A stretch of DNA of 32,379 bases from the UHGV virus genome UHGV-0235014. One strand, given 5' to 3'. The notes below the pieces were generated by a model. The model had not been told where the DNA came from, did not search any database, and worked only from the letters and a program-made list of their open reading frames with translations. Position numbers and translations under genes: made by a program. This document shows, one piece after another, positions 389 through 32,379 of the stretch; the first letter of the stretch is position 1; every line of letters starts with the position of its first letter. Origin of the DNA: a virus.

Positions 389-396
389 GGCTCACC

Positions 397-1081: not shown

Positions 1082-2434
<1,353 letters not shown>

Positions 2435-2442
2435 GACATTCC

Positions 2443-2474: not shown

Positions 2475-2550
2475 ATTACCAGAAACAAATCTCTATGGTT
2501 TTGCGTTTCTTTGCGAAGCCAACTCTATCTAATTATTAAGGAAATTATGT

Positions 2551-2832: not shown

Positions 2833-2866
2833 TGTAGAAAGACTGGATCAATCCACAGGAGTAATT

Positions 2867-13261: not shown

Positions 13262-13262
13262 T

Positions 13263-15461
13263 ATGGCAGAAAAAAAGATGACTGACTGGCATCGCAAGGT
13301 GCTGTGCAACTTTGATAATGCCTGGTCAGCAACGCAGGATATGCGTGAGCAGATTATTGAGGCTCAACGTTTCGTCCGGGTGTCCGGCGCACAGTGGGAA
13401 GGCAGCACAAACGCTGGTTACTCATTTGATGAAGGCAGGTTTGAGCATTATCCGCGTTTTGAACTGAATAAGATTTCCCGTGAATGTGATCGCATCATTG
13501 GCGAGTATCGGCAGAATCGCATCAGCGTTAAATTCAGGCCGAAGGATGACAAGGCATCGGAAGCGTTAGCCGAAAAGATGAACGGCAAATTCCGCGCTGA
13601 TTATCAGGAAACATCCGGTGGCGAAGCGTGTGATAACGCATTTGATGATGCTGTAACGGGCGGATTCGGTTGTTTCCGCATGTGTGCTGATTACGAAGAT
13701 GAAATGGATCCGAGTAACGAGCAGCGACGCATCAGCCTTCTTCCTGTTTACGACCCAGCGACATGCGTCTTCTTCGATCAGGACAGCAAGCAATATGACC
13801 GCTCTGATGCTATGTGGGCTATGGAAATGTTCTCCATGACGCCTAAAGCGTTCGAGGCTGAATACCCTGATTCCATCGCGGCAAGCCTTTCTCGTGATGA
13901 CACTGGCACTCAATATGACTGGTCAACGCCCGATGCCATCTATGTTGGACGCTACTACGAAGTTCGCATAGAGAAGGTGAAGCTCACGGCGTGGCGCAAC
14001 CCTGTTAGCGGAGAAACGGCAATCTATGATGAAGAGCAAATCAAAGATGTTGTCGACGAGCTAACCGATGGCGCATTCGAACTGATTGGTGAGCGAACGG
14101 TGAAGAAACGCCGCGTTTATTGCGGCCTTCTGTCTGGCGCTGAATGGCTGGAAGAACCAAAGCGTATTCCGGGAGAACATATTCCACTCATCCCGGTATA
14201 TGGGCGTCGCTCATTTGTTGATAATCAGGAGCGAATCGAAGGCCACGCAGCAAAAGCGATGGATGCACAGCGTCTTGAGAACCTGATGGTTTCCATGATT
14301 GCAGATAACGCTACTCAGGCTGGCGGTGATGGCATTCCTGTAGTTGATGTTGACATGATTCCTGGTCCTCTCGCCAATCATTGGGCGGAGCGCAACAAAA
14401 AGCGCCCGGCGTTCCTGCCGATGGTAAGTCTGAAAAACAAAAACGGAGATATTACTGCGCAGGCTCAGGTCAGCAGTTATACACCTCCGACACAAATGCC
14501 TCCTGCTCTTGCCGGGCTATTGCAGTACACCGGAACGGCTATTCAGCAAATTACAGGTGCGTCGCAGCTTGAGAATATGCCGAGCAACGTCGCTACCGAT
14601 ACCGTTGATAGCATCTTTAACCGGATGGACACGCAGTCCTATATCTACATGGACAACATGGCTAAATCCATGCGCCGCGCTGGCGTCGTGTGGCTTTCTA
14701 TGGCTCGTGAAGTCTATGGCAGCGATACGCCAATGCGCATTGTTAATGAGGACGGCAGCGATGACGTGGCGCTGATGACTGGTGAAGTGGTTGACCGTCA
14801 GACAGGGCAGGTTATCGCGCTTAACGACCTTTCGCAGGGTAACTATGAAGTGACTGTCGATGTCGGTCAGTCGTTCGCTACTCGCCGTGATGCAACGGTT
14901 AAGTCGTTACTTTCCATGCTGGCACTTATCCCACCAGGAACGCCGAAGCACGACCTTGTATCGTCGATGATTCTCGACAATATGGACGGCGAAGGGATGG
15001 ATGACCTTAAAGAATACAACCGCAATCAGTTGCTTCTGTCTGGAGTTATCAAGCCGAGAACGCCAGAAGAGCAGCAGATGGTTGAGCAGGCGAAACAACA
15101 ACAGGCCAGTCAGCCAGATCCGGCTATGGTTGCAGCGCAAGGTCAGCTTCTTGCTGGTCAGGCTGAATTGCAGAAAGCGCAGAACGAACAGGCAGCCATT
15201 CAGGTTAAAGCATTCCAGGCACAGACTGATGCTCAGGTTGCTGCGGCAAATGTTGTGAAAATCCTCGCATCTGCCGATAGTCAGCAGAAATCTGATATCC
15301 GCGAGGCTCTGAAACTGCTCGGACAGTTCCAGCAACAGCAAGGAGACAATGCCCGTGCTGATGCAGAGCTTGTCCTGAAAAGTCAGGCACAGGGTCATGC
15401 GCAGCGCATGGACATCAGCAGCATCCTACAAAAATCAACTCAGCAACAACCACAGCAGTAA
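13263..15461 (+). CDS. portal protein (P22 gp1-like with Gln-rich C-terminal barrel)
   Basis: 732 aa; ..KRRRVY...GEHIPLIPVYG.. and Q-rich C-terminus parallel P22 portal. Confidence 0.9.
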   Translation: MAEKKMTDWHRKVLCNFDNAWSATQDMREQIIEAQRFVRVSGAQWEGSTNAGYSFDEGRFEHYPRFELNKISRECDRIIGEYRQNRISVKFRPKDDKASEALAEKMNGKFRADYQETSGGEACDNAFDDAVTGGFGCFRMCADYEDEMDPSNEQRRISLLPVYDPATCVFFDQDSKQYDRSDAMWAMEMFSMTPKAFEAEYPDSIAASLSRDDTGTQYDWSTPDAIYVGRYYEVRIEKVKLTAWRNPVSGETAIYDEEQIKDVVDELTDGAFELIGERTVKKRRVYCGLLSGAEWLEEPKRIPGEHIPLIPVYGRRSFVDNQERIEGHAAKAMDAQRLENLMVSMIADNATQAGGDGIPVVDVDMIPGPLANHWAERNKKRPAFLPMVSLKNKNGDITAQAQVSSYTPPTQMPPALAGLLQYTGTAIQQITGASQLENMPSNVATDTVDSIFNRMDTQSYIYMDNMAKSMRRAGVVWLSMAREVYGSDTPMRIVNEDGSDDVALMTGEVVDRQTGQVIALNDLSQGNYEVTVDVGQSFATRRDATVKSLLSMLALIPPGTPKHDLVSSMILDNMDGEGMDDLKEYNRNQLLLSGVIKPRTPEEQQMVEQAKQQQASQPDPAMVAAQGQLLAGQAELQKAQNEQAAIQVKAFQAQTDAQVAAANVVKILASADSQQKSDIREALKLLGQFQQQQGDNARADAELVLKSQAQGHAQRMDISSILQKSTQQQPQQ

Positions 15462-15551
15462 TTAACCCATAACGTGCAATGGCTGTCTTTATGAGGCCTG
15501 GCACCCTATTGCCTTCCGATGGGCTGAACATCGAGTAAACAGGGGTAACAA

Positions 15552-16445
15552 ATGGACCAGATGGCAGAAAACACACCAGAAGTTGAAATCGAAACCGACG
15601 CGTCAGAGCAGATTCCTGATGATGTCGAACTGGCTGAAGAAGTCGAAACAGCAGATGGCAGTGAGTCCTCAGGAAATGATGCAGAGGAAGCTACTGACAC
15701 TGATGACGACGAATCAGAACAGGAATTCTACTTTGGTGACGAAAAGCTGGATTCGCCAACCAGCGAAGATAGCGCAGAGCATGGACTGGTAAAACACCTG
15801 CGCAAGACGATTAAAGAGAAAGACCGCGAGCTGAAAGAGCTGATGCGTCAGTCTCAGAAACCCGTCGAGCAGCAGCCGGTAATCACTCAACCACCGCGAA
15901 TGCCAAAACTGGATGATGAGGACATCGGTTTCGATGAAGAAATCTATCAGCAACGCATGGCTAAGTGGGCAGAGGATAACGGCAAGTACCAGCAACAGGA
16001 GATAGCTCGCAAGCAGAAGGAGCAGGAGCTTCAGGCTGCCTATCAAGAGCGATTATCCAAATATCAGCAACGTGTTAAGGCTCTCAAGGTTCCTGGCTAT
16101 CAGGAAGCAGAACAGGCCGTACTCGAGGAAATCCCCATCGAGACACAAAACGCGATCCTGTTTGAGTCAGAGAAGCCGGAAATCGTTGTTCTGGCACTCG
16201 GTCGCAACGCTGAACTGCGCAAGCAACTGGCAGAAGCTACCAACCCCGTAGCAATTGGTCGTCTGCTGGAACGTATCGAATCGAAGGCCAGAATCATGCC
16301 AAAAGCAAAAACCACGGCAGCCACAACCCCGACAGTTAAGGGGAGCAACGGCGCAGTTATCAACAACCTCGACAAATTGAAAGCCAAGGCGCTGGAAACT
16401 GGTGACTGGACGCCGTATTTCGCCGCTAAAAAGGCAAAAAAATAA
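15552..16445 (+). CDS. scaffolding protein
   Basis: 297 aa, highly acidic N-terminus, helical/charged, between portal and coat. Confidence 0.8.
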   Translation: MDQMAENTPEVEIETDASEQIPDDVELAEEVETADGSESSGNDAEEATDTDDDESEQEFYFGDEKLDSPTSEDSAEHGLVKHLRKTIKEKDRELKELMRQSQKPVEQQPVITQPPRMPKLDDEDIGFDEEIYQQRMAKWAEDNGKYQQQEIARKQKEQELQAAYQERLSKYQQRVKALKVPGYQEAEQAVLEEIPIETQNAILFESEKPEIVVLALGRNAELRKQLAEATNPVAIGRLLERIESKARIMPKAKTTAATTPTVKGSNGAVINNLDKLKAKALETGDWTPYFAAKKAKK

Positions 16446-16463
16446 CCTATCGGAGCATTAAGC

Positions 16464-17717
16464 ATGGCTAACCAATTAGCAAAAGACCTTGAAATCATGT
16501 TCGAAAACTACGTTGAAGGCTTTGAGGCCGCCTGCGTAGTTTCCCGTAACGCTAAAAAATTCCGTCCCGGTGATACAGCAATGCAGCGAGCAGGTGATGT
16601 TCTGTATCGTCCGCAGCATTACCACATGAACATTGAGGAAGGCCTCGACCTCAGCAGCAAAACGCCAACAGCACTGGTTCAGCGCCTTGTTCCTTCTGTG
16701 TTCAAGGAGCCTAAAAACATTCTGTACACTCTGGATGCGCGTGAAATGCGTGACCCGGAACATAAAACTGAAGCTGGTCGCGCCGCAGGTATGCGCCTTG
16801 CTGCACAGATTGACTCTGACCTGATTTCCATGGTCACGCAGCGTGCTACTAACGTGATCACAATGGCTGACTCAACCACTGGTTCACAGGGCCGTGATTT
16901 GTGGAACTGTGCGGCAGGTATTGATGCCACCATGACGGCGATTGGTGTACCGCAGGGTATCAACCGTCGCTCTTTCTGGAACCCCTTCAACTACAAAGAC
17001 CTTGCTGGCGAGCTTGGTCACCGTGCCTACGCTCAGGGCGCAACCCTGACAGCATACGAAAAAGCGCAGATCCCTCCGATTGCTTCCTTTGATAGCTACA
17101 AGACCGATATTTCTGGTCGTGTTCCGAAAGGGACTGCGACTTCCATTACGCTGGCGGCCGAACCTGCGCACAAGGTTGAAGCGAAAGACGCCAACGATAT
17201 GCCAGTGGATAACCGACAGGGGACCATTACGGTATCTGCATCTGGTTTGCAGGTTGGCGATGCATTTACCATTGCAGGGGTGAATTCTGTACACCAGATC
17301 ACCAAAGACACCACCGGGCAGCCGCAGGTATTCCGCGTTCTGGCAGTTAGCGGAACGACAGTAACTATCTCCCCGAAAATTTTGCCGCCTGACAACGCGG
17401 ATGTCGCCAGCCGTCCATATGCAAACGTTGATGCTAACGCGGCAAATGGTGCAGCAATTACCATTCTCAACAAAAATGCCGCACCGGCTAACCTGTTCTG
17501 GGCTGATGGTTCTGTTGAACTGATGTACGGCAAACTGGCATTCCCGACTGGTCAGGGGCCACAGGTAATGACAGCAACCACCGAGCAGGGCGCTACGCTG
17601 ATCATGTCTTACGCCTTCGACCACATCAAAGGCGTAACCACTGCACGTTTCACCACTCTGTACGGTTGCTCTGTACTGGTTCCTGAATATACGGGCATCG
17701 TTATTGCCGGGCAGTAA
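16464..17717 (+). CDS. major capsid (coat) protein, P22 gp5-like
   Basis: 417 aa; position after scaffold; strong terminator immediately downstream. Confidence 0.85.
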   Translation: MANQLAKDLEIMFENYVEGFEAACVVSRNAKKFRPGDTAMQRAGDVLYRPQHYHMNIEEGLDLSSKTPTALVQRLVPSVFKEPKNILYTLDAREMRDPEHKTEAGRAAGMRLAAQIDSDLISMVTQRATNVITMADSTTGSQGRDLWNCAAGIDATMTAIGVPQGINRRSFWNPFNYKDLAGELGHRAYAQGATLTAYEKAQIPPIASFDSYKTDISGRVPKGTATSITLAAEPAHKVEAKDANDMPVDNRQGTITVSASGLQVGDAFTIAGVNSVHQITKDTTGQPQVFRVLAVSGTTVTISPKILPPDNADVASRPYANVDANAANGAAITILNKNAAPANLFWADGSVELMYGKLAFPTGQGPQVMTATTEQGATLIMSYAFDHIKGVTTARFTTLYGCSVLVPEYTGIVIAGQ

Positions 17718-17724
17718 TTTTGGT

Positions 17725-17747
17725 GGGGCTTCGGCCCCATTTTTATT
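17725..17747 (+). terminator. intrinsic terminator after coat gene (UUCG tetraloop hairpin)
   Basis: GGGGC-TTCG-GCCCC followed by ATTTTTATT. Confidence 0.75.
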
Positions 17748-17758
17748 GGGAGAAGACA

Positions 17759-17947
17759 ATGGCACGAACAATGCTCTATAAGCCTGGCAACATGATCACC
17801 TGTGGTCAGTTTGCTGTCGATTACATCATTGTTGATGACGAAGAAGTTAAATCTCACCTGAAAAAAGGCTGGGTAAAAACTCCTGAAGAAACCGCAACGA
17901 AGCAAAAAGTGGCTAAGGCGGAAGAAGATGGCGAAAACGAAGGGTGA
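17759..17947 (+). CDS. small hypothetical protein between coat and gp4 genes
   Basis: 62 aa from ATG 17759 with GGGAGA SD; MARTMLYKPGNMITCGQFAVDYIIVDDEEVKSHLKKGW...; acidic C-terminus. Confidence 0.5.
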   Translation: MARTMLYKPGNMITCGQFAVDYIIVDDEEVKSHLKKGWVKTPEETATKQKVAKAEEDGENEG

Positions 17948-18389
17948 TCTCGTTCTTAAGGCTTTACGAAAAGCCGGGCTGTATTCCAATGCCACGTTGA
18001 CAGATGCTGACCCTCAGGCAATTGAAGATGCCATTAATGACCTCGAAGACATGATGGCAGCATGGCAGGCTAAAGGTATCGAGCTTGGGTATCAGTTTGC
18101 TGATACAGAAAACGGCATCATGCCGTTACCTGACGATGATTCAGGTATCCCTGCATGGGCAAATGATGGCGTCGCTTTGAAACTCGCTGTGCAAGTGTGC
18201 ATGGATAACGTCATTCAGCCGTCAGACGCTCTCCTTACCGCTGCTGACAGTGCATATCAGACAATCTGTATCGCTTTAACCAAAATACCACCACTTGAGC
18301 GACGAAATGACATGCCTCGCGGTAGTGGTAACAAAAGCGCGTTTACGTGGAATCGGTTTTACATCGAGAAAGATGATCCGAGTACGTGA
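17928..18389 (+). CDS. head completion / tail accessory factor (P22 gp4-like)
   Basis: 153 aa, synteny between coat and gp10-like gene. Confidence 0.75.
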   Translation: MAKTKGDLVLKALRKAGLYSNATLTDADPQAIEDAINDLEDMMAAWQAKGIELGYQFADTENGIMPLPDDDSGIPAWANDGVALKLAVQVCMDNVIQPSDALLTAADSAYQTICIALTKIPPLERRNDMPRGSGNKSAFTWNRFYIEKDDPST

Positions 18390-18398
18390 GGTGAATAA

Positions 18399-19817
18399 AT
18401 GCCGATTCAGCAACTTCCGCTTATGAAAGGTGTCGGCAAAGACTTTCGAAACGCCGACTATATCGACTATCTGCCAGTAAATATGTTGGCTACACCCAAA
18501 GAAATCCTTAACAGCAGCGGATATCTTCGCTCATTCCCGGGCATTGCAAAACGTTCTGATGTGAACGGTGTATCTCGAGGCGTCGAGTACAACATGGCGC
18601 AGAATGCTGTTTATCGCGTGTGTGGTGGCAAGCTGTACAAAGGAGAAAGTGAAGTCGGTGATGTTGCCGGAAGTGGTCGCGTATCAATGGCGCATGGTCG
18701 GACATCACAGGCGGTAGGCGTTAATGGTCAACTTTTCGAGTATCGCTATGATGGCACGGTTAAAACCGTCTCAAACTGGCCTGCAGACAGCGGATTTACG
18801 CAGTATGAATTAGGTTCGGTTCGTGACATTACTCGCTTACGTGGGCGTTATGCGTGGTCAAAAGACGGTACTGATTCATGGTTTATCACTGATCTTGAAG
18901 ACGAATCGCATCCTGACCGCTACAGCGCACAATATCGGGCAGAATCACAGCCTGACGGCATCATCGGCATCGGAACATGGCGAGACTTCATCGTCTGCTT
19001 TGGCTCATCGACGATTGAATATTTCTCCCTGACTGGTGCAACCACAGTTGGTGCTGCTTTGTATGTCGCACAGCCATCGCTGATGGTGCAGAAAGGCATT
19101 GCCGGGACTTACTGCAAAACGCCGTTTGCTGATTCGTATGCGTTCATCAGCAATCCGGCAACAGGTGCGCCGTCTGTGTACATCATCGGTTCCGGTCAGG
19201 TGTCACCAATCGCCAGCGCGAGCATTGAGAAAATCCTCCGCTCCTACACTGCTGATGAACTGGCTGATGGTGTGATGGAATCGCTGCGATTTGATGCTCA
19301 TGAGTTGCTGATTATCCACCTTCCGCGCCATGTTCTCGTGTACGACGCATCTTCAAGCGCCAATGGTCCGCAATGGTGTGTGCTGAAAACAGGCCTGTAT
19401 GACGATGTGTACCGCGCTATCGACTTCATTTACGAAGGCAATCAGATAACGTGCGGCGATAAGCTGGAATCGGTGACCGGGAAATTGCAGTTCGATATCA
19501 GCAGCCAGTACGACAAGCAGCAGGAACATATTTTATATTCTCCTTTAATAAAGGCAGATAACGCTTTAATAAATGACCTTGAATTAGAAACATCGGGCGG
19601 CGTGTGTGATAGAATAGATAAAATATTTATATCAGCCACTACAGATGGAATTAGTTACGGTCGTGAGCAAATGGTCGTATTACAAAAACCATTTGTATAT
19701 GACAATCGCGTTTTATGGCGAAAAGTTGGTCGAGTTAGACGCCTCATTGGATTTAAATTCAGAGTTATTGCAAAAGGTCCTGTTACATTATCAGGCCTTT
19801 CTATTCGTGTAACATAA
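18399..19817 (+). CDS. tail hub protein (P22 gp10-like)
   Basis: 472 aa, same length class as P22 gp10, synteny; last ~100 codons are AT-rich. Confidence 0.8.
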   Translation: MPIQQLPLMKGVGKDFRNADYIDYLPVNMLATPKEILNSSGYLRSFPGIAKRSDVNGVSRGVEYNMAQNAVYRVCGGKLYKGESEVGDVAGSGRVSMAHGRTSQAVGVNGQLFEYRYDGTVKTVSNWPADSGFTQYELGSVRDITRLRGRYAWSKDGTDSWFITDLEDESHPDRYSAQYRAESQPDGIIGIGTWRDFIVCFGSSTIEYFSLTGATTVGAALYVAQPSLMVQKGIAGTYCKTPFADSYAFISNPATGAPSVYIIGSGQVSPIASASIEKILRSYTADELADGVMESLRFDAHELLIIHLPRHVLVYDASSSANGPQWCVLKTGLYDDVYRAIDFIYEGNQITCGDKLESVTGKLQFDISSQYDKQQEHILYSPLIKADNALINDLELETSGGVCDRIDKIFISATTDGISYGREQMVVLQKPFVYDNRVLWRKVGRVRRLIGFKFRVIAKGPVTLSGLSIRVT

Positions 19818-19838
19818 ATCGAAACTAAAGGAGTAGAT

Positions 19839-20384
19839 ATGTTGAGTGAAAACGCAAAAGATATTCCTGGATATGAAGGTTTATATGCCGTAACAGAGGA
19901 TGGGCGAGTATATTCTCACTCACGTGTTGTTAAAGCTGCGCATGGCAGCACGCAACTCAGAAAGGGGCGGTGGCTAAAACAACACGAGAATAATAAAGGT
20001 TATCTATATTTGCCACTTAGTGTTGATGGAGTTAAAGTAAAATGGCTTGTGCATAGGCTTGTCGCTCTTGCTTTCGTCCCCAATCCAGAAGGCAAGCCGT
20101 TCATAAATCACATAGATAACAACCGAAAAAATAATAATGCTTCTAATTTAGAGTGGTGTACTCAAAAGGAGAATATGAAGCATTGCTCATCTCAAGGCAG
20201 GGTGAAGTTTCCGGCTTTAAAAGGAGAAAATAATCCAATTTCAAAGCTATCATATGAGCAAGTAATAGAAATAAAGAAATCAAAGGGAGTTAATCAAAGA
20301 GAGCTTGCTAAAAAATACTGTGTCAGTCAGACGGTGATTCACAATATCCAGTCTGGTAAATCGTGGAGGCATGTTAATGGCTGA
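19839..20384 (+). CDS. HNH homing endonuclease (NUMOD4 + HNH_3 + C-terminal HTH)
   Basis: 181 aa; [18 protein letters not shown] (NUMOD4), [22 protein letters not shown] (HNH), C-terminal HTH; AT-rich; inserted between gp10 and gp26. Confidence 0.85.
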
Positions 20385-21078
20385 TTCGAATCTCAATGTG
20401 CCGGTAATCATCCAGGCTACACGACTCGATACATCAATCCTTCCACGCAATATATTCAGCCAGTCTTACCTGCTGTATGTCATTAATCAGGGGGCTGATG
20501 TCGGCGCAATTGCCGGGAAGGCAAATCAGGCTGGTCAGGGCGCTTACGATGCCCAGGTAAAAAACGATGAACAGGATGTCGAACTGGCTGATCACGACGC
20601 AAGAATCACCGCAAACACAAAAGCGATAAATCTACTTGAGGTCAGGTTAACAACTGCCGAAGGGAAGATAGTCGTACTGCGTAGCGATGTTGATTACTTG
20701 CTGGATGAGGTTATCGATATTCAGGCGCATCTGGTCACTGTTGACCAAAGACTGGATGAGGTAGAAAACGATGTCTCTGGCATTAAGAGTGATTACGTAT
20801 CGAAAACCGTAACCGAATTGCAGTCTCTTGAGTCACCGCTGGATGTAAAAACATCATATTCAGTTGATGGAATTCAGGTTGTTGGAGCAAGAAATACCGG
20901 ATGGACTGCAGCCACAGGTACACCTCTTCTTGGCTCATTCAACGCTAACCAGTCATACACAGTCGGCACTACGTACACACAATCCGAAGTCGCAGCCCTC
21001 GCTACAGGTTTGCAGCAGGCGCGGCAGCGTATTCTGGCGCTTGAAACGGCACTTAGATTACATGGGCTGATTGACTGA
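20377..21078 (+). CDS. tail needle protein (P22 gp26-like)
   Basis: [68 protein letters not shown]... matches gp26 N-terminal domain and trimeric coiled coil. Confidence 0.8.
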
Positions 21079-21533
21079 TGATTACATTCAAACCAACGCG
21101 AAACATCGACCTGATAGAAGCCGTAGGAAATCACCCTGACATTATCGCCGGGAGCAACAACGGTGATGGATACGACTACAAACCTGAATGCCGTTACTTT
21201 GAGGTGAACGTGCACGGGCAGTTCGGCGGAATTGTTTACTATCAGGAGATTCAGCCGCTGACCTTTGATTGCCACGCCATGTACCTGCCAGAGATTCGCG
21301 GCTTCAGCAAGGAAATCGGGCTGGCGTTCTGGCGATACATTCTGACTAACACCACCGTTCAGTGCGTCACATCGTTCGCTGCACGCAAATTCCGCCACGG
21401 GCAGATGTACTGCGCAATGATTGGCCTTAAGCGTGTAGGAACCATCAAGAAATACTTCAAAGGCGTGGATGACGTGACGTTTTACAGCGCCACACGCGAA
21501 GAACTAATCGACTTCCTGAAGCACGGGAGATAG
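21078..21533 (+). CDS. head assembly/ejection-associated protein (P22 gp14-like)
   Basis: 151 aa, synteny after needle gene. Confidence 0.7.
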   Translation: MITFKPTRNIDLIEAVGNHPDIIAGSNNGDGYDYKPECRYFEVNVHGQFGGIVYYQEIQPLTFDCHAMYLPEIRGFSKEIGLAFWRYILTNTTVQCVTSFAARKFRHGQMYCAMIGLKRVGTIKKYFKGVDDVTFYSATREELIDFLKHGR

Positions 21534-21535
21534 CC

Positions 21536-22231
21536 ATGTTATATGCATTTAAGCTGGGCAGAAAACTGCGCGGCGAGGAACCTTATTGCCCTGAAAAAGG
21601 CGGGAAAGGTGGCAGTTCTGATAAAAGCGCAAAGTATGCAGCAGAAGCTCAGAAGTATGCCGCAGACCTGCAAAATCAGCAGTTCAACACCATCATGAAC
21701 AACCTGAAACCGTTTACTCCTCTGGCTGAGAAGTATGTCGGCAGCCTCGAGAACTTATCGTCTCTGGAGGGGCAAGGTCAGGCACTTAACCAGTATTACA
21801 ACTCTCAGCAGTACAAAGATCTTGCTGGTCAGGCTCGCTATCAGAGTCTGGCGGCAGCGGAAGCAACAGGTGGATTGGGTTCCACCGCAACCAGTAATCA
21901 GTTAGCAACAATCGCACCAACGCTTGGTCAGCAATGGCTATCTGGACAAATGAACAATTACAACAACCTGGCAAATATCGGTCTTGGCGCTCTTCAGGGG
22001 CAGGCAAATGCTGGGCAAACATATGCCAACAACATGAGCCAGATTTCACAGCAAAGCGCGGCACTGGCGGCGGCAAACGCTAATAGACCTTCCGGCCTTC
22101 AATCTGCAATAGGCGGGGCTGCCTCTGGAGCAATTGCTGGAGCAAAACTTGGCAGCATTGTTCCTGGTATTGGTACTGGTATTGGTGCCGCTGTTGGTGG
22201 CGGTCTTGGTCTGCTTGGCTCGTTGTTTTAA
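21536..22231 (+). CDS. ejection (E) protein, P22 gp7-like
   Basis: 231 aa, Gly/Ala/Gln-rich, C-terminal glycine-zipper-like hydrophobic tail; synteny. Confidence 0.75.
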   Translation: MLYAFKLGRKLRGEEPYCPEKGGKGGSSDKSAKYAAEAQKYAADLQNQQFNTIMNNLKPFTPLAEKYVGSLENLSSLEGQGQALNQYYNSQQYKDLAGQARYQSLAAAEATGGLGSTATSNQLATIAPTLGQQWLSGQMNNYNNLANIGLGALQGQANAGQTYANNMSQISQQSAALAAANANRPSGLQSAIGGAASGAIAGAKLGSIVPGIGTGIGAAVGGGLGLLGSLF

Positions 22232-22240
22232 GGGGTAATC

Positions 22241-23590
22241 ATGGCTACGTGGCAACAGGGTATTAATTCTGGTGGTTTTCTGGCTGGCATCGGTACGCAA
22301 AATGAGAATGCGCCAAAGGCAAGCGACATTAACGCAACGCTTGGTCTGATCCGCGAAAACAATGAATTGGCTCGATCAGGTGCAAATAACGTTGGTCTGA
22401 CCGCGTTACGTGGTCTGGCTGGAGTTGCTGATATTTACAATCAGGAACAGCAACAGAAAGCGATTAGTGCGTTCAATAAGGTTCACGCTGATGCATGGGC
22501 TTCTGGTGATCCATCGGGACTATTTAAGTTTGCCAAGGAAAATCCAGCGTTTGTTGCGCAGGCACAACAGGCGTTTTCCGGTCTTAATGAGCAGCAACGC
22601 AACGATATGGGCGATTTAGCCATGAGGGCTAACGTCGCTCTTTCTCAGGGACCGGAAGCCTACAGTAAATTCATTACTGACAACAAGGACAGGTTAAATC
22701 GCGTGGGGGCGAATGCTGACTGGATGATTCAGACAGGTATCCAGAATCCAGAGCAGCTATCACACATGTTGACTACTATGTCTCTCGGTGCGCTTGGACC
22801 AGAAAAGGCGTTTGCTGTTCAGGACAAGATGGTTGGTCGCCAGCAGGAGCAGCAAAGAATTAACGAAACCATTCGCAATAATGACATGACGAATGCGAGG
22901 GCTATTAGGGGGCAGGATCTTTCCTATAAGGCTCAAATGGCAAGACTGAATCACGACAAGTATGTGTTTAAGCAGTCACAGGCGGCCCTTGAAAGAGCAG
23001 GACAACTTCAGGATATGGATGTTTTGTCTCTTAACTCACAGATAGCAGCGACGGGAATTGATCCGCTAACCGGTAAAGCTGCAACGTCAGCCAGAATGTC
23101 TCAGGCTAAGAGATGGCTTGATGGCAACAATAATTACAACAATGCGTTGATTACTGGTGAGCGAGGGATAGAGAAAATAGATTCTTTGCTTGGTAAGAAG
23201 GAGCTTGAAGGTATCGGTCGCTTCGAAGGAAGAAATATAGATGGCTTCACAAGTGCTGAAGGGCTTGCAAACCGTAATGCGATAGAAGAATTAAAGTCGG
23301 GTGCGTTTGTCCAGAACGTGCAGACTATGCGAGGTATGGGTAGCCTCTCCAATGCTGAAGGACAAAAACTGGAAAACCTTATCGCGAAACTCGATATAAC
23401 ACAGCCTGAAGAGGTCGTCAGAAAACAGTTATCTGAAATCCGATCGCAATATTCTGTATTTCAAAAGGTTGCAGCAAGGGAGGCTGAATCAATGGGATAT
23501 AGTTCATCAGGTTATGACACATATGTTAGTGAGCGAAAATCAGGAAGCGACAGCAATAAGTCCGGTTTCTCGTCTTTATGGGGTGATTAA
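22241..23590 (+). CDS. ejection (E) protein, P22 gp20-like
   Basis: 449 aa; synteny. Confidence 0.75.
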
Positions 23591-25464
23591 TGGCTAAAGC
23601 ATGGAAAGATGTTATCGCTTCTCCACAGTATCAGGCGTTAACTGAAGAACAGAAAGCACAGGCTCAAGCGCAATATTTTGATGAGGTTGTTGCCCCTAAG
23701 GCTGGTGACAAATGGGCTGAAGCAAGAGATCAGTTTTATGCAGCATACCCTCCACCTCAGCAGCAGAAAGAAGAACCATCATTGATGCAACAAGCTGGTG
23801 ATTGGCTCACAGGTGGTCAAAGTGCAGGGCAAATTGCAGAACAGGCTGGTCGTGGTCTGGTAAACATACCATTTGACGTATTGCAGGGTGGCGCAAGTCT
23901 GATTAATGCAATCAGTCAGGGGCTTGGTGGACCCAAGGTTTTGGATGATGTTTATCGTCCAGTAGACAGACCGACAGACCCATACGCACAAGCCGGTGAA
24001 ACAATTGGTGGGTATTTAGTTCCAGGAGTTGGAACGGCAGGAAGCATGGCTATTGGATCACTGGCAGAGGCCGCAAATCAGAAAGGCGATTTCGCACAAA
24101 ATGCAGCTAAAAATGCCGGAGTTAACCTTGCCGCTCAGGGTGTTCTTTCCGCAGCAGCAAAGGGAATAGGGCGTGGAATAACGGCTATAAAAGGTGATAT
24201 TGCGCCAGAAGTGGCGAAGAAAATTGCCACATCAGAATCGATGGGCGTGACACCAATGACATCTGATGTTATCCCGCCGAAAAATGCTTTCACTCGCGGC
24301 CTTACTCAGGATGCCGAGGGGGCTTTGCTCGGGACAGGCTCAAAGCGAGCGGAGCAATATGCAACGCGTAGTAAGCTGGTAAGCAATTATTTTGACCGTT
24401 TTGGTGAGTACAACCCTGATGATGTGGTGAAATCTCTGACCACCACGTTAAGGGGGCGGAAGGATGCTGCTGGCGCTGTTATCAATGACGTCACCAATAA
24501 AATGGGTAATGCCGCAGTTGATACCACAAATACCATGAATGCTCTGAATACAGCGATCGCAAGACAGGAACGGCTTGGGACTTCAGCCAATCAAAGCCTG
24601 CTTACATCCTTGCGTAACCTACGTGAAGAATTAGCAAACCCTGCAACTGATTTGGATGTTACGTTTGATCTCTTGCGTCAGCACAGAACAGCATTTAGAT
24701 CTAATGTTCAGGGAGATGCTATGGTCTTCCCCAACCAGGCAAAAGCAGCTACCAATATGGTAGAGAATGCAATGTCAAAAGACCTTCGTAACGCAGTTGC
24801 TAAAAACCTCGGTGCATCAGACGCAGCAAAATACCTTAAAGCAAATTCCGATTATGCAAACGTTTATAATAAGGTGCTTAATAAAAACATTGCCAACAAG
24901 CTCAACAAGGCAAGCAGTGAAGCCAGTCCTGAACTTATAAATACCGTTGTATTAAGCAGAAAACCATCTGACGTGAAACGAATCTGGAGCGCACTGGATG
25001 ATAAAGGGAAAGATGCTATGCGTGCAGCTTACGTCAGCAAAATAGCGGAAAAGGCCGGTGACTCTCCAGCCAAGTTCATCACTGAAGTTAATAAGCTGAA
25101 ATCTCAGTCAGGAGGTGAAATTTACAACACTATTTTTTCTGGAAAGCACATGAAAGAACTTGATGCTCTTAATGAAGTTCTACAGCAAACAGCAAGGTCA
25201 GACACCGCAAATGTAGTAACTCAGACGGGGCAATCGCAAGCCAACAGGATAAGGACGATTGGCGCAACTGCGACTCTTGGCGTATCAATGGGGCTTGAGG
25301 CTGGTTTCGGTGCAATGATGCGCTTGTATGAGTCCAAAGCAGCAAGGAATGCGCTCTTACGTCTGGCAAACACTAAAGCTGGAACGCCAGCCTATGAAAG
25401 AGCGCTGAATAACGCCGCAAATGCCATCAGACCAATACTTGCCAATGATGCAACTGATCGCTAA
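23590..25464 (+). CDS. ejection (E) protein, P22 gp16-like
   Basis: 624 aa; synteny; last gene of structural operon before strand switch. Confidence 0.75.
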
Positions 25465-25485
25465 GGGTTGATGTCATGGATGTTG

Positions 25486-26124
25486 TTAATTGCGAATGGA
25501 ATCGCGGAACTCTTTGCTTGATAGAAAAGGATCTGTTCTCCTTAACTCATCATAGTTTTTATTAAACTTTCTTGCTTCACCTGGGTATCTGTTGAACAAA
25601 ACATTGCAGAAAAAAGAGAGCAATAACTCACATATGAATGCTAATACCCTGAAAAATAAAGGTATAAAAAGAAGGGAAGGTTCATTGAAGTCTCTATTCC
25701 AAACAAAATAGACAATCATCCCGACATACCAAATTGATATCCCTATACTGATGATTGTTCCAACAGAGGTAACTACGATCCCGATTAAGTCGGACAGTCT
25801 GTTTGCCAGTAACTCATTTGAGTATCTTGCAATCATATACCGCCAACATTTTGCAATATCATCCTGATCTGTAGAGTCTTCTGGAATAGCTAGGCTTCTA
25901 CATATTGAAGTAGCTCTTTTTTTCTCAACTCTTTTTGAGATCCATCCATTAAAGAGATACATCAACACCTGCGTTGCTATTCCTGCACCAAGTGATATCA
26001 AAGACATCCCCAAAAATCTCCATCCTGGAGATAGTGACTGGTACTGCCAAACAAAAAAAATTAAAAAACCCAATGAGCCTATGACATAGGCTGATGTATC
26101 GCTATATATATCTATTTTTTTCAT
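25486..26124 (-). CDS. polytopic inner-membrane protein; candidate superinfection exclusion (SieA-position) protein
   Basis: Minus strand, ATG 26124 with AAGGAG SD; ~5 predicted TM segments; very AT-rich; downstream of and co-oriented with a repressor gene, between gp16 and the ant module where P22 carries sieA. Confidence 0.7.
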   Translation of the reverse strand: MKKIDIYSDTSAYVIGSLGFLIFFVWQYQSLSPGWRFLGMSLISLGAGIATQVLMYLFNGWISKRVEKKRATSICRSLAIPEDSTDQDDIAKCWRYMIARYSNELLANRLSDLIGIVVTSVGTIISIGISIWYVGMIVYFVWNRDFNEPSLLFIPLFFRVLAFICELLLSFFCNVLFNRYPGEARKFNKNYDELRRTDPFLSSKEFRDSIRN

Positions 26125-26188
26125 TGAGTAGCCACTCCTTAGTTTTGAGCAGAACACCGGATGATAATGTGTCGCTTCCTAAAGGATA

Positions 26189-26830
26189 TCAAAGCAACGG
26201 GATTTCAAGGTAAACTGCGGTTGCCAAAATACTAACATCTTCATTTCTAACAAGAATATTAGGATACATTGGGTTTAGGGATACTAAGTTTGTCTCTATT
26301 TCACCAATGTAAACCTGCTTGAAGCTCAATATTTGCTCTTTATCCAATGATGCTATTACATAATCTTTGCTTTTAGCTTTTACTAGAGGGCTGAACGTGA
26401 CAACTGATCCTCTGGGAAAGCTAATACCTGAACTTGTAGTCATAGCTTCACCTTCAATAGTCAATGCAAATGCAGAGTCACCAACATTGTATATTGCCGG
26501 ATGAAATCTAGACGATGAATGTTCACCTGTGTTTAGGTAATGCATAACTTCATCTAGTTTGAGGATTGGTATTTGCTTTACCAGAACGTCAGGCATGACG
26601 TTTTTTGTTCCAGGCCCCTGACCTTCACCCAGAGCTAACCACTCAGCCGTAGTGCCTAATGCGTTGGCTAATGCCTGCAATACACGAAGCCGTGGTTTAG
26701 CCTCACCACCCTCGTATGCAGCTATTTGACGTTGAACAACACCAGCTAATTTTGACAACTGCGCCTGCGTCATACCCCTGGACTGTCTTGCCAGAGATAC
26801 TCTTGATGGGAATTGATCGTCAAAATTCAT
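26189..26830 (-). CDS. CI/LexA-like repressor (HTH_XRE + S24-like domain with nucleophile Ser replaced by Ala)
   Basis: 213 aa; HTH MTQAQLSKLAGVVQRQIAAYEGG; C-domain aligns to 434/lambda cI but has GEAM in place of GDSM; Lys of FKQV retained. Confidence 0.8.
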   Translation of the reverse strand: MNFDDQFPSRVSLARQSRGMTQAQLSKLAGVVQRQIAAYEGGEAKPRLRVLQALANALGTTAEWLALGEGQGPGTKNVMPDVLVKQIPILKLDEVMHYLNTGEHSSSRFHPAIYNVGDSAFALTIEGEAMTTSSGISFPRGSVVTFSPLVKAKSKDYVIASLDKEQILSFKQVYIGEIETNLVSLNPMYPNILVRNEDVSILATAVYLEIPLL

Positions 26831-26861
26831 TAGTTCACCATAAAAAATTCATTGACTCATA

Positions 26862-26890
26862 CTGAGTGTGAGTGAATAATCAAACTACAA
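26862..26890 (+). promoter_or_regulatory. candidate promoter for arc-like/ant operon in divergent intergenic region
   Basis: TTGACT (26862..26867) - 17 nt - AATAAT; between divergent repressor and RHH genes; operator not resolved. Confidence 0.4.
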
Positions 26891-26929
26891 AAAGTGAGAT
26901 TATGAGTTTTTCAAAAACAGGAGTGCATA

Positions 26930-27103
26930 ATGACTGAAAAGATATCTTCCATCAAGCCGCGTCAGGTTCGTTTTACAGAAAAGGTTGATTCACATATCCG
27001 CGAATCAGCAAAAAGATGCCATAGGTCAATTCAGGCAGAGATAGCTTATCGAATGGAGTTATTGATGAAACTTGAGGCAAAGGGCGATGTTGTCATCCAA
27101 TAA
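26930..27103 (+). CDS. Arc-like ribbon-helix-helix protein (57 aa)
   Basis: ATG 26930 with CAGGAG SD; basic beta-strand PRQVRFTEKV then two helices typical of RHH; directly precedes antirepressor; short, not in ORF track. Confidence 0.6.
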   Translation: MTEKISSIKPRQVRFTEKVDSHIRESAKRCHRSIQAEIAYRMELLMKLEAKGDVVIQ

Positions 27104-27176
27104 AAATAGTGAAGCCCGGCAGTGCGCGAACACAAACCGGGCCTCTATGTCAGTAACCGTATGCAAGGAAACTAAC

Positions 27177-27803
27177 ATGAATATTGTAGCAAAATCAGAT
27201 TACAACTTCCACGGAGTTGAGTTGGTGCCCACCCGTGATATGCATGGTGTTTGGTTTACATCATCTAATATTGCATCTGCACTTAAATATGCAAATAGCC
27301 GTGCAGTAACAATGATTTATAACAAGTATAGCGATGAGTTTAGCGCCGGAATGACTCAGGTACTCGAAGTGAGTACCTCAGGAAATTATCGCAAAAAAGT
27401 GCGAGTTTTCTCACTACGCGGTGCCCACCTAATCGCGATGTTTGCTCGCACTCCGGTAGCCAAAGAGTTCCGCCGCTGGGTGCTGGATATTTTGGATCGG
27501 CAGGCAGAATGCTCACCGATTGCAAAACAGTTTACTGACGAAGAACTGGTTAATCTCTGCTACTTACAATTGTGGATGGAGAAGAGTCAACAAATGTGCA
27601 AACACATCTACCCAGGAATGAAGCAAATTGGTTCTGAGCTTTCAGGAAGAATTTACGATATTGCATATGAGACTCGCTATATGTCAGAAGAAACCAAGAA
27701 ATCACTTCTTCGTGAAATGAAGAATCTTGATACCAACAATTTTGTCGTAAAGAACGCTCAGCCAATGCTGACAAAACTGCGCGGCGAGGAATGGATTCAT
27801 TGA
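27177..27803 (+). CDS. antirepressor-like protein with N-terminal Bro-N domain
   Basis: 208 aa from ATG 27177 (AAGGA SD); YNFHGVELVPTRDMHGVWFTSSNIASALKY fits Bro-N pattern. Confidence 0.75.
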   Translation: MNIVAKSDYNFHGVELVPTRDMHGVWFTSSNIASALKYANSRAVTMIYNKYSDEFSAGMTQVLEVSTSGNYRKKVRVFSLRGAHLIAMFARTPVAKEFRRWVLDILDRQAECSPIAKQFTDEELVNLCYLQLWMEKSQQMCKHIYPGMKQIGSELSGRIYDIAYETRYMSEETKKSLLREMKNLDTNNFVVKNAQPMLTKLRGEEWIH

Positions 27804-27891
27804 TTGGTGCGCCGGACGGCGCAAAAAGAAAACCGCCAGTGTGCTGCTGGCGGCCTATGTCACACCCTTACTACCACATAAGGAATGCCTA

Positions 27892-28617
27892 ATGACTTTG
27901 AAGAATGTAGCAAACATCGGATCCGTTGTCACGGATAAAACCATTGACAGCCAAAGTCTTCTGATGATGGTTAATGAAGCTCGCAAGTTATGTGGAGAGC
28001 CATCAGTACGTAACAACAAATTCATCGAGAAAATTGAGGATGAATTGGAGGGCGAGACCTACACAAAAAGTGTAGGTCGGAAAAACGGGGCTGACATTGA
28101 TGTTATCTCCATGACTATCAAGCAGGCGCTTCGTGTTGCTGCTCGCGAATCTAAAGCAGTTCGCCGAACACTTGTAGACAAACTTGAAAGTATGCAAGAA
28201 GCGCACATTAAAAGCGGTAAATCGTCGAGTGGACTTGTTGAGTATCGCCAGGCACGAACATTGAAAATGACGGTTGAAGCTGTTACCAATCTGTTAGATT
28301 TGATGCCAAATCTTGCGCCGGAAGCAAAGCAGACTGCGGCAGCAAGCATAATCAACCCGATAGTTGGTTTTAATGCAATACCTCTTCCAGCAATAGAAGA
28401 GCATTACTACTCAGCAGGGGAGGTTGCAGAGCAGCTTGGAGTAACGGCAAACAAGATTGGTCGCATTGCTAACGCAAACAACCTCAAAACTGAGCAGTAC
28501 GGGAAGTTCTTCTTGGATAAATCTGCGCATTCAAGCAAACAGGTGGAAGCATTCCGCTACAATGCGGAGGGTGTTAAAGCACTACAACACCTGATTCATG
28601 GGAGCAATGTTGCATAA
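27892..28617 (+). CDS. hypothetical protein in ant operon (possible antirepressor/regulatory protein)
   Basis: 241 aa from ATG 27892 (AAGGA SD); not confidently recognised. Confidence 0.6.
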   Translation: MTLKNVANIGSVVTDKTIDSQSLLMMVNEARKLCGEPSVRNNKFIEKIEDELEGETYTKSVGRKNGADIDVISMTIKQALRVAARESKAVRRTLVDKLESMQEAHIKSGKSSSGLVEYRQARTLKMTVEAVTNLLDLMPNLAPEAKQTAAASIINPIVGFNAIPLPAIEEHYYSAGEVAEQLGVTANKIGRIANANNLKTEQYGKFFLDKSAHSSKQVEAFRYNAEGVKALQHLIHGSNVA

Positions 28618-28838
28618 TGGCAAAGAAAAGATATGGCATTATGCCGCCAAGAATCAAAGGAAGAGCCAGGGTAAAAGGAGATGCTGGAAGGTATCACATT
28701 CTTGGAGTTCTGTGGCATGAGAGAGCTTTAATTTTAAGTAGACCTCATGGGTACATTGAAAAGGTATCTATAGATAGAGTAGAGATTCTTCCCCTTACAC
28801 CTGAAGAAGAAGAAACGTACGGACTTTTTGATAACTAA
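28617..28838 (+). CDS. small hypothetical protein (73 aa)
   Basis: TAATG overlap with preceding gene; followed by strong terminator. Confidence 0.5.
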   Translation: MAKKRYGIMPPRIKGRARVKGDAGRYHILGVLWHERALILSRPHGYIEKVSIDRVEILPLTPEEEETYGLFDN

Positions 28839-28845
28839 CCAACTA

Positions 28846-28875
28846 AACCCGCTTAATTGCGGGTTTTTTCTTTTC
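28846..28875 (+). terminator. intrinsic terminator ending the ant operon
   Basis: AACCCGC-TTAATT-GCGGGTT followed by TTTTTTCTTTT; stop codon of the convergent mnt-like gene lies in the loop. Confidence 0.75.
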
Positions 28876-29110
28876 TAAGGATATCAGCCACAACTTCTTT
28901 TACTCGTTCCGAGATTAATGAGGCCAGCCTCTCTTCTTCATCACGATACCCGCTTACAGGTGATGGTTTGGAGAGTGATTCTTCCATCGTAGCCACAATT
29001 TCGGAATTGATAGACCTGTTATTCATTTTTGCACGTTGCTTAATCTTAGCGTGCAACTCGTGCGTAAGCCTCAAGTGGAACTGCGCCTCATCGTATTTGC
29101 TGTACATCAT
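28853..29110 (-). CDS. mnt: Mnt-like ribbon-helix-helix repressor
   Basis: 85 aa from ATG 29110 (GGTGAGG SD); ...NRSINSEIVATMEESLSKPSPVSGYRDEEERLA... closely parallels P22 Mnt (..NGRSMNSELLQIVQDALSKPSPVTGYRNDAERLA..). Confidence 0.7.
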   Translation of the reverse strand: MMYSKYDEAQFHLRLTHELHAKIKQRAKMNNRSINSEIVATMEESLSKPSPVSGYRDEEERLASLISERVKEVVADILRKEKTRN

Positions 29111-29242
29111 CAATGCCTCACCAAATGGGTGGAATGGCATCGTAAAACCTACTGTACAAATCAACAATCGTACCATTTCGGTATGCAACAAACACCAACC
29201 GTAGCCACGCTGCGGCGATTCCTTGTATCTGGAGCAAATTAA

Positions 29243-32188
29243 ATGACAGACATTACAGCCAATGTTGTGGTAAGCATGCCTTCGCAACTCTTCACTATGG
29301 CTCGTTCTTTTAAAGCGGTAGCCAATGGCAAAATTTATATCGGTAAAATTGACACTGACCCAGTAAATCCTGAAAACCAGATTCAGGTTTATGTGGAGAA
29401 TGAAGACGGTTCTCACGTTCCTGTTTCGCAACCAATAATCATTAACGCTGCTGGATATCCGGTATATAACGGACAGATTGCCAAATTCGTTACCGTGCAA
29501 GGCCATTCTATGGCTGTTTATGATGCGTATGGTGCACAGCAGTTCTATTTTCCCAATGTGCTGAAGTATGACCCTGATCAACTACGGCAGCAATTAGAAG
29601 ACCCAGATGGAGCGAATAAATACCCAAAACTTCAGATAGCAAGATGGAGAGACAGTTATGATGTAAGAGGTTGGGGGGCTATTGGTGATGGTGTTCATGA
29701 TGATACATCAGCTCTATCAGAATTACTTTCTGTTGCAACAGGTGGTGAAAAGATAGATGGGCGAGGGCTTACTTTTAAAGTATCAACTCTTCCAGATGTC
29801 AGTCGATTTAAAAATGCTCGTTTTTTATTTGAGAGAATACCGGGTCAGCCTCTTTTTTATGCTTCTGAAGATTTTATCCAGGGAGAGTTATTTAAAATTA
29901 CAGATACACCGTGGTACAACGCCTGGACGCAGGATAAAACGTTTGTATATGACAATGTCATCTATGCGCCTTTTATGGCTGGAGACCGCCATGGTGTAAA
30001 TAACCTCCATGTTGCATGGGTTCGCTCAGGAGATGACGGGAAGACCTGGACAACGCCGGAATGGCTTACAGATTTACATGAAAACTATCCCACAGTTAAC
30101 TATCACTGCATGAGTATGGGGGTTGTCAGAAATCGCCTTTTTGCTGTAATTGAGACGCGGACCGTGAGCGGAAATAAACTGCAGGTTGCAGAGTTGTGGG
30201 ATCGCCCAATGAGTCGCAGCCTTCGCGTTTATGGTGGTATAACGAAAGCAGCAAATCAGCAAGTCGCTTATATTCGCATTACTGATCACGGATTATTTGC
30301 TGGTGATTTTGTCAACTTCTCAAATTCTGGTGTTACAGGTGTTACCGGGAATATGACGGTGACTACTGTTATTGATAAAAATACTTTTACAGTTACGACG
30401 CAAAATACCCAGGATGTGGATCAGAATAACGAGGGTAGATACTGGAGTTTTGGTACATCATTTCACTCGTCACCATGGAGAAAAACCAGTCTTGGAACTA
30501 TTCCTTCTTTTGTTGACGGAAGCACTCCTGTTACTGAGATTCACAGTTTTGCGACGATTAGCGATAACAGTTTTGCTGTTGGCTACCATAATGGTGATAT
30601 TGATCCACGCGAGCTTGGGATACTCTATTTCTCTGATGCTTTCGGTTCTCCTGGTAGCTTTGTTCGCAGACGCATACCTGTAGAATATGAGGCGAATGCA
30701 TCTGAGCCATGTGTAAAATATTATGATGGCATTCTGTATCTGACGACCAGGGGGACATTAAGTACTCAACCCGGTAGTTCATTGCACAGAAGCTCTGATT
30801 TAGGTACATCATGGAATTCTCTTCGCTTCCCAAATAATGTTCATCACTCAAACCTTCCTTTTGCCAAAGTTGGCGATGAGCTGATTATTTTTGGCAGTGA
30901 GCGCGCATTTGGTGAGTGGGAAGGAGGAGAACCTGATAACCGTTATGCAGGAAATTATCCAAGAACATTTATGACCAGAGTTAACGTCAATGAGTGGAGT
31001 CTGGATAATGTAGAGTGGGTTAATGTTACTGATCAGATTTATCAGGGCGGAATAGTTAACTCTGCGGTTGGTGTTGGTTCAGTTTGTATCAAAGACAACT
31101 GGCTGTACTACATTTTCGGTGGGGAAGACTTTCTAAACCCATGGAGCATAGGGGATAACAACAGAAAATATCCTTATGTTCACGATGGTCACCCGGCTGA
31201 TTTGTATTGTTTCAGGGTGAAAATTAAACAGGAAGAATTTGTTTCAAGGGATTTTGTCTACGGAGCCACTCCTAACAGAACGCTTCCTACTTTTATGTCG
31301 ACGTCAGGCGTGAGGACGGTTCCTGTACCCGTTGATTTCACAGATGATGTTGCCGTCCAGTCACTGACTGTCCATGCAGGTACATCAGGACAAGTTCGCG
31401 CGGAAGTCAAACTTGAGGGTAATTACGCCATTATTGCGAAGAAAGTACCGTCTGATGATGTTACCGCTCAGAGATTAATCGTTAGCGGCGGTGAAACAAC
31501 GTCTTCAGCAGATGGTGCAATGATAACGTTGCATGGTTCCGGAAGCAGTACTCCACGTCGCGCGGTATATAACGCACTCGAACATCTTTTTGAGAACGGA
31601 GATGTTAAACCTTATCTTGATAATGTAAATGCTCTTGGTGGTCCGGGAAACAGGTTCTCGACAGTTTATCTTGGCTCCAATCCTGTGGTTACCAGTGACG
31701 GAACATTAAAGACAGAGCCGGTCTCTCCTGACGAAGCATTGCTGGATGCCTGGGGTGACGTCAGGTATATCGCTTATAAATGGCTGAACGCTGTCGCTAT
31801 AAAGGGGGAAGAAGGGGCGAGGATACATCATGGTGTAATCGCGCAGCAACTTCGTGATGTTCTTATTTCTCACGGACTCATGGAAGAAGAAAGCACAACA
31901 TGCCGCTATGCGTTTCTTTGCTATGACGATTATCCCGCAGTATATGATGACGTCATTACTGGCCAAAGGGAAATGCCGCTGACTGATAATGACGGGAGCA
32001 TCATTGTTGATGAGGATGATAATCCAGTGATGGTAATGGAAGACATCATTGAGCGCGTTGAAATAACGCCAGCAGGATCTAGATGGGGGGTCAGACCTGA
32101 TCTCTTATTCTATATCGAGGCGGCATGGCAGCGCAGAGAAATAGAAAGAATAAAAGCTAGGTTAGACTTAATAGAAGGGAAGCACTAA
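29243..32188 (+). CDS. tailspike protein: P22 gp9-like head-binding domain + endosialidase (endo-N-acylneuraminidase) + C-terminal intramolecular chaperone (S74-like) domain
   Basis: 981 aa; N-terminal ~115 aa conserved tailspike head-binding domain; Asp-boxes SGDDGKTW (30026..30049) and SSDLGTSW (30791..30814); C-terminal region with Ser-x4-Lys (VVTSDGTLK, Ser at 31694..31696) typical of auto-cleaving chaperone domains. Confidence 0.85.
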
Positions 32189-32340
32189 ATGTTTCGTTGG
32201 CGTCAAAAATATGAACTGCTCACATAAAGAAGTAAGTACATTGGCAAAAAACATTGACGTCAACGAAATTAAATATAAAAATTTAAATGCTTTTTAATGA
32301 CAAGAAAAGTAACTAGTGGTAAAATAACGTAGGATACTAA

Positions 32341-32379
32341 TATGTCAAGACTCAAGACTCAAGACTCAAGACTCAAGAC
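32341..32379 (+). CDS. neuO: polysialic acid O-acetyltransferase NeuO, 5' end only (continues beyond window)
   Basis: ATG followed directly by tandem AAGACTC heptanucleotides encoding RLKTQDS repeats, the published neuO contingency-locus signature; downstream of endosialidase tailspike. Confidence 0.75.
32346..32379 (+). repeat. AAGACTC heptanucleotide tandem repeat (phase-variation tract), truncated by window end
   Basis: At least four perfect tandem copies of AAGACTC plus a partial copy, beginning 5 nt after the ATG. Confidence 0.9.

Follow-up and report, generated by a model that had tools for sequence, protein, structure and literature searches.

A CUS-3-type tailspike gene that joins a P22-type head-binding domain to a K1F-type endosialidase and a predicted self-cleaving chaperone domain

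Introduction

The window analysed here is one stretch of viral DNA of 32,379 nucleotides (UHGV virus genome UHGV-0235014). A long open reading frame (ORF) close to its 3' end raises the question of what kind of tailspike it encodes, which capsule this tailspike would act on and whether the protein is new or already known. An earlier note, made from the sequence without database searches, had described the product as a chimeric tailspike in which a P22-like head-binding domain is followed by an endosialidase body and a C-terminal chaperone domain that cleaves itself, and had proposed a polysialic acid capsule of the K1 type as the receptor. We examined the gene, its domains, its closest relatives and its surroundings.

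Results

The tailspike ORF and its domain architecture

The ORF at 29243-32188 on the plus strand runs from an ATG start codon to a TAA stop codon and encodes a protein of 981 amino acids. A ribosome-binding site (GGAG, 29231-29234, plus strand), which was read directly from the sequence, is located 8 nt upstream of the ATG. Other ORFs that overlap the gene or lie antisense to it are only short mechanical ones of at most 103 amino acids. The ORF is real, with its start, stop and strand as described in the earlier note, and all motifs quoted there were found in the translation.

Domains were assigned by Pfam, and solved structures were compared by sequence match to the PDB. Pfam recognizes six modules in the protein with E values from 1e-10 to 1e-233; these scores are far above chance level, and all expected domains are present. 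The first module (amino acids 1-113; 29243-29581, plus strand) is a P22-type head-binding or tail-attachment domain (PF09008, Head_binding, E 4.8e-67), which is aligned over the full model (1-113 of 113). In P22-like phages the head-binding domain fixes the tailspike trimers to the tail. It is followed by a linker without a Pfam domain (amino acids 114-145; 29582-29677, plus strand), which forms the joint with the endosialidase body. This body starts with the endosialidase N-terminal extension (amino acids 146-212; 29678-29878, plus strand; PF12218, End_N_terminal, E 8.9e-37) and continues as the catalytic six-bladed beta-propeller (amino acids 213-662; 29879-31228, plus strand), for which the PF12217 model (End_beta_propel, E 7.9e-233) is matched from end to end (1-367 of 367). 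A beta-barrel (amino acids 324-406; 30212-30460, plus strand; PF12195, End_beta_barrel, E 1.2e-46) is inserted in the propeller. The stalk domain (amino acids 663-817; 31229-31693, plus strand; PF12219, End_tail_spike, E 7.5e-78) has Thr817 as its C-terminal residue. The last 164 amino acids (818-981; 31694-32185, plus strand) correspond to the intramolecular chaperone or self-cleaving domain, assigned by Peptidase_S74 (PF13884) and PDB entry 3gw6. No NCBIfam model matches the protein, which reflects the coverage of that library and is not counter-evidence.

The matches to solved structures divide the protein at the same place. Structures of the P22, Sf6 and related tailspikes (7sg7, 8tvr, 1lkt and 2vky) match amino acids 1-118/127 only (E 1e-45 to 7e-65), which together with PF09008 bears out the proposal that the N-terminal stretch of about 115 amino acids is a P22-like head-binding domain. 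Structures of endoNF, the endosialidase of phage K1F (1v0e and 3gvl), match amino acids 145-817 (endoNF 246-910) with an E value of 0 and 66.2% identity, and the C-terminal endoNF construct 3gw6 matches amino acids 698-979 (E 6e-96), with 56.2% identity in the chaperone domain. Solved structures therefore cover the tailspike except for a linker of about 17 residues (amino acids 128-144). As the matches to P22-family spikes stop by amino acid 127 and those to endoNF begin at amino acid 145, the description of the protein as chimeric is correct.

Both parental families share part of their organization with the protein. The tailspikes of P22, Sf6 and HK620 (8tvr, 2xc1, 1lkt and 7sg7) share its head-binding domain (matched over amino acids 1-118/127, E 1e-50 to 7e-65) and, like it, are encoded at the end of a P22-like late operon. 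However, the P22 and Sf6 matches end at amino acids 118-127, so that the receptor-binding bodies are unrelated in sequence, and these spikes have no Peptidase_S74 match. In K1F endoNF (1v0e, 3gvl, 3ju4 and 3gw6) the propeller, barrel, stalk and self-cleaving chaperone domain all correspond to those of the tailspike, and the catalytic residues and the Lys at the cleavage site are identical. The two proteins differ in a 7-residue insertion (FVDGSTP, amino acids 422-428) which endoNF does not have, and in the N-terminus, which in endoNF is a T7-type tail-attachment module according to its published description (PMC5380687), whereas here it is the P22-type head-binding domain. In the same review, the CUS-3 tailspike serves as the textbook example of module exchange, with an N-terminus common to P22, Sf6 and HK620 and a catalytic domain common to K1F (PMC5380687).

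The same endosialidase body was also found behind another N-terminus. The 1,039-amino-acid endosialidase P0003 of E. coli (ADE90020.1) is similar to the tailspike from amino acid 134 (compared over amino acids 134-981, window positions 29642-32185) and nearly 100% identical from approximately amino acid 174, except that the last 11 or so C-terminal residues differ. Proteins of this type, present in other E. coli genomes, have an unrelated N-terminus of about 190 amino acids starting with MTVSTEVDHNEYTGNG. One and the same catalytic body thus occurs with a third kind of attachment module.

Near-identity to CUS-3 SiaK1 and distribution in E. coli

The gene is the orthologue of siaK1 (CP000711.1, 2526-5471) of Enterobacteria phage CUS-3 from E. 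coli RS218, to which it is 99.0% identical at the nucleotide level over its full length. The GenBank annotation of CUS-3 siaK1 reads 'endosialidase tailspike protein' with the GO term endo-alpha-sialidase activity, evidence code IDA, which stands for a direct assay (PMID 16689790), and a review lists the CUS-3 protein (CAJ29292.1) among the endo-N-acetylneuraminidases (PMC5380687). CUS-3 SiaK1 (endoNK1; ABQ88383.1; Stummeyer et al., 2006, PMID 16689790; King et al., 2007, PMID 17601779) is also 981 amino acids long, has the same domain order and is followed by neuO at an equal distance downstream. The proteins share 972 of 981 residues, and none of the nine substitutions (V9I, P43T, P121T, A207V, D454G, V480A, G767R, T807I and A832T, given relative to CUS-3) is located at a mapped catalytic or cleavage residue, D454 being two residues N-terminal of the catalytic-site residue Arg456. 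The sequence comparison identifies the tailspike as an allele of CUS-3 siaK1, a protein which has already been described, and the earlier reading of it can be regarded as correct but already known.

The nucleotide differences are unevenly distributed. Within the first 361 nt of the gene (29243-29603), which encode the head-binding module, 19 of the 29 differences from CUS-3 siaK1 are found. This clustering suggests that recombination took place close to the boundary of the module and that the N-terminal module comes from a slightly different lineage.

The same gene is widespread. The tail fibre gene of phage vB_EcoP-720R6 is 99.2% identical to it, that of phiv205-1 is 99.7% identical over 93% of its length, and the exact 981-amino-acid sequence is already present in NCBI (e.g., HBC6304062.1, 'phage tailspike protein [Escherichia coli]'). 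The cluster of the protein at 90% identity has 3581 members. When the gene and 191 bases downstream of it were used as a query, at least 80% of the query was covered in 154 of 5426 complete E. coli genomes, including that of one strain recorded as O2:K1:H5. The proposed K1 capsule receptor is supported by matches in strains recorded as serovar K1 and by the 99% identity to siaK1, with its annotated endosialidase activity, of a phage from the K1 strain RS218.

The endosialidase body and its predicted substrate

Two Asp-boxes (S-x-D-x-G-x-T/S-W) sit in the propeller. The first (SGDDGKTW, amino acids 262-269; 30026-30049, plus strand) is aligned to SGDDGQTW of endoNF and the second (SSDLGTSW, amino acids 517-524; 30791-30814, plus strand) to SRDIGQTW. 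In a deep mutational scan of the K1F tailspike, H350, R549, E581, R596 and R647 were key catalytic residues which tolerate very few substitutions (PMC12632334). These residues are identical in the tailspike (H250, R456, E488, R503 and R554, respectively), and R744, which corresponds to R837 of endoNF, is unchanged as well. The protein therefore has the sequence features of a K1F-type endosialidase, namely the propeller, the catalytic residues, two Asp-boxes, the beta-barrel insertion and the stalk. The endosialidase body with two Asp-boxes is supported by the Pfam propeller, the endoNF match with an E value of 0 and the five conserved catalytic residues, and the alignment to K1F endosialidase which the earlier note had proposed as a check gave the 66.2% identity over endoNF 246-910 mentioned above.

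The substrate preference of this allele might nevertheless have shifted relative to the CUS-3 and K1F endosialidases through its substitutions, for example towards O-acetylated polysialic acid or the K92 alpha-2,8/2,9 polymer. The nine substitutions relative to CUS-3 include D454G next to Arg456 as well as G767R and T807I in the stalk, the identity to endoNF is only 66%, and neuO, whose product O-acetylates the substrate, is linked to the tailspike gene. However, the residues of the catalytic site and R744 are unchanged, the number of substitutions is small and K1 strains are the source of the nearest relatives, and we consider a shifted preference very improbable. That the few differences from CUS-3 SiaK1 (candidates being D454 and, in the stalk, G767 and T807) would tune the enzyme towards O-acetylated polysialic acid, the product of NeuO, is a speculation to which we give equally little credence; in that case the allele would represent a natural variant with an adaptation to its receptor in acetylated form. 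The enzyme is most simply read as a polysialic acid endosialidase of the CUS-3 and K1F type.

The C-terminal chaperone domain and its predicted cleavage site

The match to Peptidase_S74 (PF13884, 'chaperone of endosialidase') covers amino acids 818-878 (E 1.6e-10; 41.6 bits against a cut-off of 22) and begins precisely at residue 818. The motif VVTSDGTLK, which starts at amino acid 815, contains Ser818 and Lys823 in a Ser-x4-Lys arrangement. Ser818 (codon 31694-31696, plus strand) is the predicted nucleophile, and the bond between Thr817 and Ser818 the predicted cleavage site. Ser818 is aligned to position 911 of endoNF, which is an Ala in the 3gw6 construct, and Lys823 (codon 31709-31711, plus strand), the predicted general base of the dyad, is aligned to the conserved Lys five residues past position 911. 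The mature endoNF chains in the crystal (1v0e) stop at ...SNPIVT (Thr910), which is aligned to ...SNPVVT817 of the tailspike, and Ser818 falls directly past this last residue of mature endoNF. In bacteriophage endosialidases Ser and Lys form the catalytic dyad of auto-cleavage, and they are correctly placed only once the protein has folded and trimerized (PMC3742443). The sequence features of a Peptidase S74 chaperone were all found in the tailspike: homology of the domain, and a Ser-x4-Lys motif at the start of the domain, after the mature C-terminus. The dyad had been predicted with its Ser at about residue 818, and the alignment to 3gw6 places Ser818 and Lys823 at the beginning of Peptidase_S74. 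A C-terminal fragment of 164 amino acids, counted from Ser818 (about 160 in the earlier note), is predicted to be released.

Ser-x4-Lys at the start of the domain is also found in other Peptidase S74 proteins, such as the phi29 gp12 neck appendage (3gud), T5 pb1 and MYRF, which give weaker matches (3gud E 3e-10). In those proteins the S74 domain is attached to unrelated bodies, whereas here it is found in its original endosialidase context.

Some reviews assign receptor recognition to the C-terminal domains of phage receptor-binding proteins, and the C-terminal domain might accordingly be retained uncleaved in the mature spike as a receptor-binding or trimerization tip. This is the least credible of the alternatives that we considered: both residues of the Ser818/Lys823 pair are retained, the domain shares 56% identity with the C-terminal part of endoNF present in 3gw6, and the mature endoNF chains in the crystal end at the residue aligned with Thr817. 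A chaperone domain which cleaves itself off is the predicted state of affairs.

Genomic context of the tailspike gene

The gene comes last in a P22-like late operon, past the genes for the DNA transfer (ejection) proteins and past an ant moron; its immediate upstream neighbours are an Arc/Mnt-family gene and an antirepressor gene. An N-terminal head-binding domain and this position at the end of the late operon are the features of a P22-like tailspike. Bases 3462-24015 represent the P22-like (Lederbergvirus) early and morphogenesis region. They match P22-like phages, among them CUS-3 and HK620, for which portal, terminase, capsid and DNA transfer proteins are annotated there; the alignment with CUS-3 extends over 65% of bases 1-25000, with 96.7% identity. 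Among complete E. coli genomes, SCU-124 and A42 are the best matches for bases 7400-32379 (99.4% identity); as this identity extends over only 81%, the window is a mosaic relative, and none of the listed genomes contains a copy of it.

Bases 1-3461 gave no match to CUS-3 by megablast, and parts of them are matched by the P22-like phages Huey and 720R6; this segment is probably a different immunity or early-region module. The ant moron (25486-29104), which separates the tailspike gene from the last of the DNA transfer protein genes, is also of another type than in CUS-3 and resembles that of phage JEP4 (96.8% identity over 61% of bases 24000-29300). It contains, by Pfam, a CI/LexA-like repressor with HTH_3 and Peptidase_S24 domains (26189-26830, minus strand), a small ribbon-helix-helix ORF (26930-27103), a Bro-N/P22_AR_C antirepressor (27174-27803), two ORFs without a Pfam match (27892-28617 and 28617-28838) and the Arc/Mnt-family gene (28853-29104, minus strand). 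For P22 itself, it would be unusual to find a second C2-like repressor in the late region. A strong terminator-like hairpin (28845-28866) with an 8-bp stem (AAACCCGC/GCGGGTTT) and T-runs on both sides sits between the converging ORF 28617-28838 (plus strand) and the Arc/Mnt-family gene, and probably terminates transcription in both directions.

From the tailspike stop codon onwards, the alignment of the window with CUS-3 is base for base and extends into neuO (32342-32379, plus strand), the gene for the polysialic acid O-acetyltransferase. The ATG of neuO is located at 32342, 154 bases 3' of the tailspike stop, and AAGACTC heptanucleotide repeats, whose number sets the on/off phase of the gene, follow from 32347; CUS-3 is annotated 'poly(psi) domain' at the same offset. 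In the literature, neuO is the phase-variable polysialic acid O-acetyltransferase gene of CUS-3 (PMC8653822; PMC9659370). A tailspike gene followed by phase-variable neuO with (AAGACTC)n is the arrangement of a CUS-3-type prophage. Such prophages are integrated at argW or at pgl-bioA and have an integrase gene past neuO, and in the related chromosome of E. coli SCU-124 the order is tailspike, acyltransferase, intS and tRNA-Arg. The window terminates inside the neuO repeat, after about five copies of AAGACTC, a sign that the assembly may have broken off there. The stretch that separates the tailspike stop codon from neuO contains a 15-nt inverted repeat (TTTCGTTGGCGTCAA at 32192-32206 and TTGACGTCAACGAAA at 32254-32268, 47 nt apart), which is kept in CUS-3 and may act as a terminator or as a regulatory element for neuO. 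Promoter-like hexamers are present at 32297-32325, 5' of the neuO ATG.

In one study, CUS-3-like prophages are described as prone to decay, many of them with pseudogenized tail and coat genes (PMC9659370), so that an intact tailspike gene is no proof of an inducible phage. The gene could then be an intact-looking relic in a decaying prophage, which never ends up in virions and has no present function or is mere cargo beside neuO, and the window does stop in the neuO repeat, which leaves the integrase/att end outside it. Several observations make this unlikely. The ORF is full length (981 amino acids) as in CUS-3, with its mapped catalytic and cleavage residues intact, and long uninterrupted ORFs on the plus strand fill 11322-25464, a region which matches records annotating portal, terminase large subunit, capsid and DNA transfer proteins. 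In addition, related free phages such as vB_EcoP-720R6 and phiv205-1 carry the same gene with more than 99% identity. A functional tailspike gene is by far the more probable reading.

Discussion

The observed domain architecture, the conserved catalytic and cleavage residues, the near-identity to CUS-3 siaK1 and the synteny with neuO lead us to conclude, with a probability of about 0.96, that the locus encodes the tailspike of a temperate phage or prophage of E. coli K1 which is P22-like (Lederbergvirus) and of the CUS-3 type. Its product is modular, composed of a P22-type head-binding domain, a K1F-type endosialidase and a chaperone domain predicted to cleave itself; trimer formation, enzyme activity and cleavage are ascribed to the present allele by homology. 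In the proposed mechanism, amino acids 818-981 would drive folding and trimerization of the stalk, as in the homologues, after which the chaperone domain would remove itself by Ser/Lys-dyad autoproteolysis between Thr817 and Ser818 and the 164-amino-acid fragment would be freed. The head-binding domain (amino acids 1-113) would dock the spike on a P22-type tail, and the propeller would cut alpha-2,8 polysialic acid, allowing the phage to penetrate the K1 capsule and reach the cell.

All of this has been published: the protein itself, the origin of its modules, the fold, the catalytic residues and, for the family, the mechanism of the self-cleaving chaperone. An identical sequence has also been deposited. 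The architecture could be recognized correctly from the raw sequence alone. For annotation, the gene is useful as a marker: it identifies the window as a K1-specific prophage of the CUS-3 type, and the host implied by it is a K1-encapsulated one such as ExPEC, NMEC or APEC.
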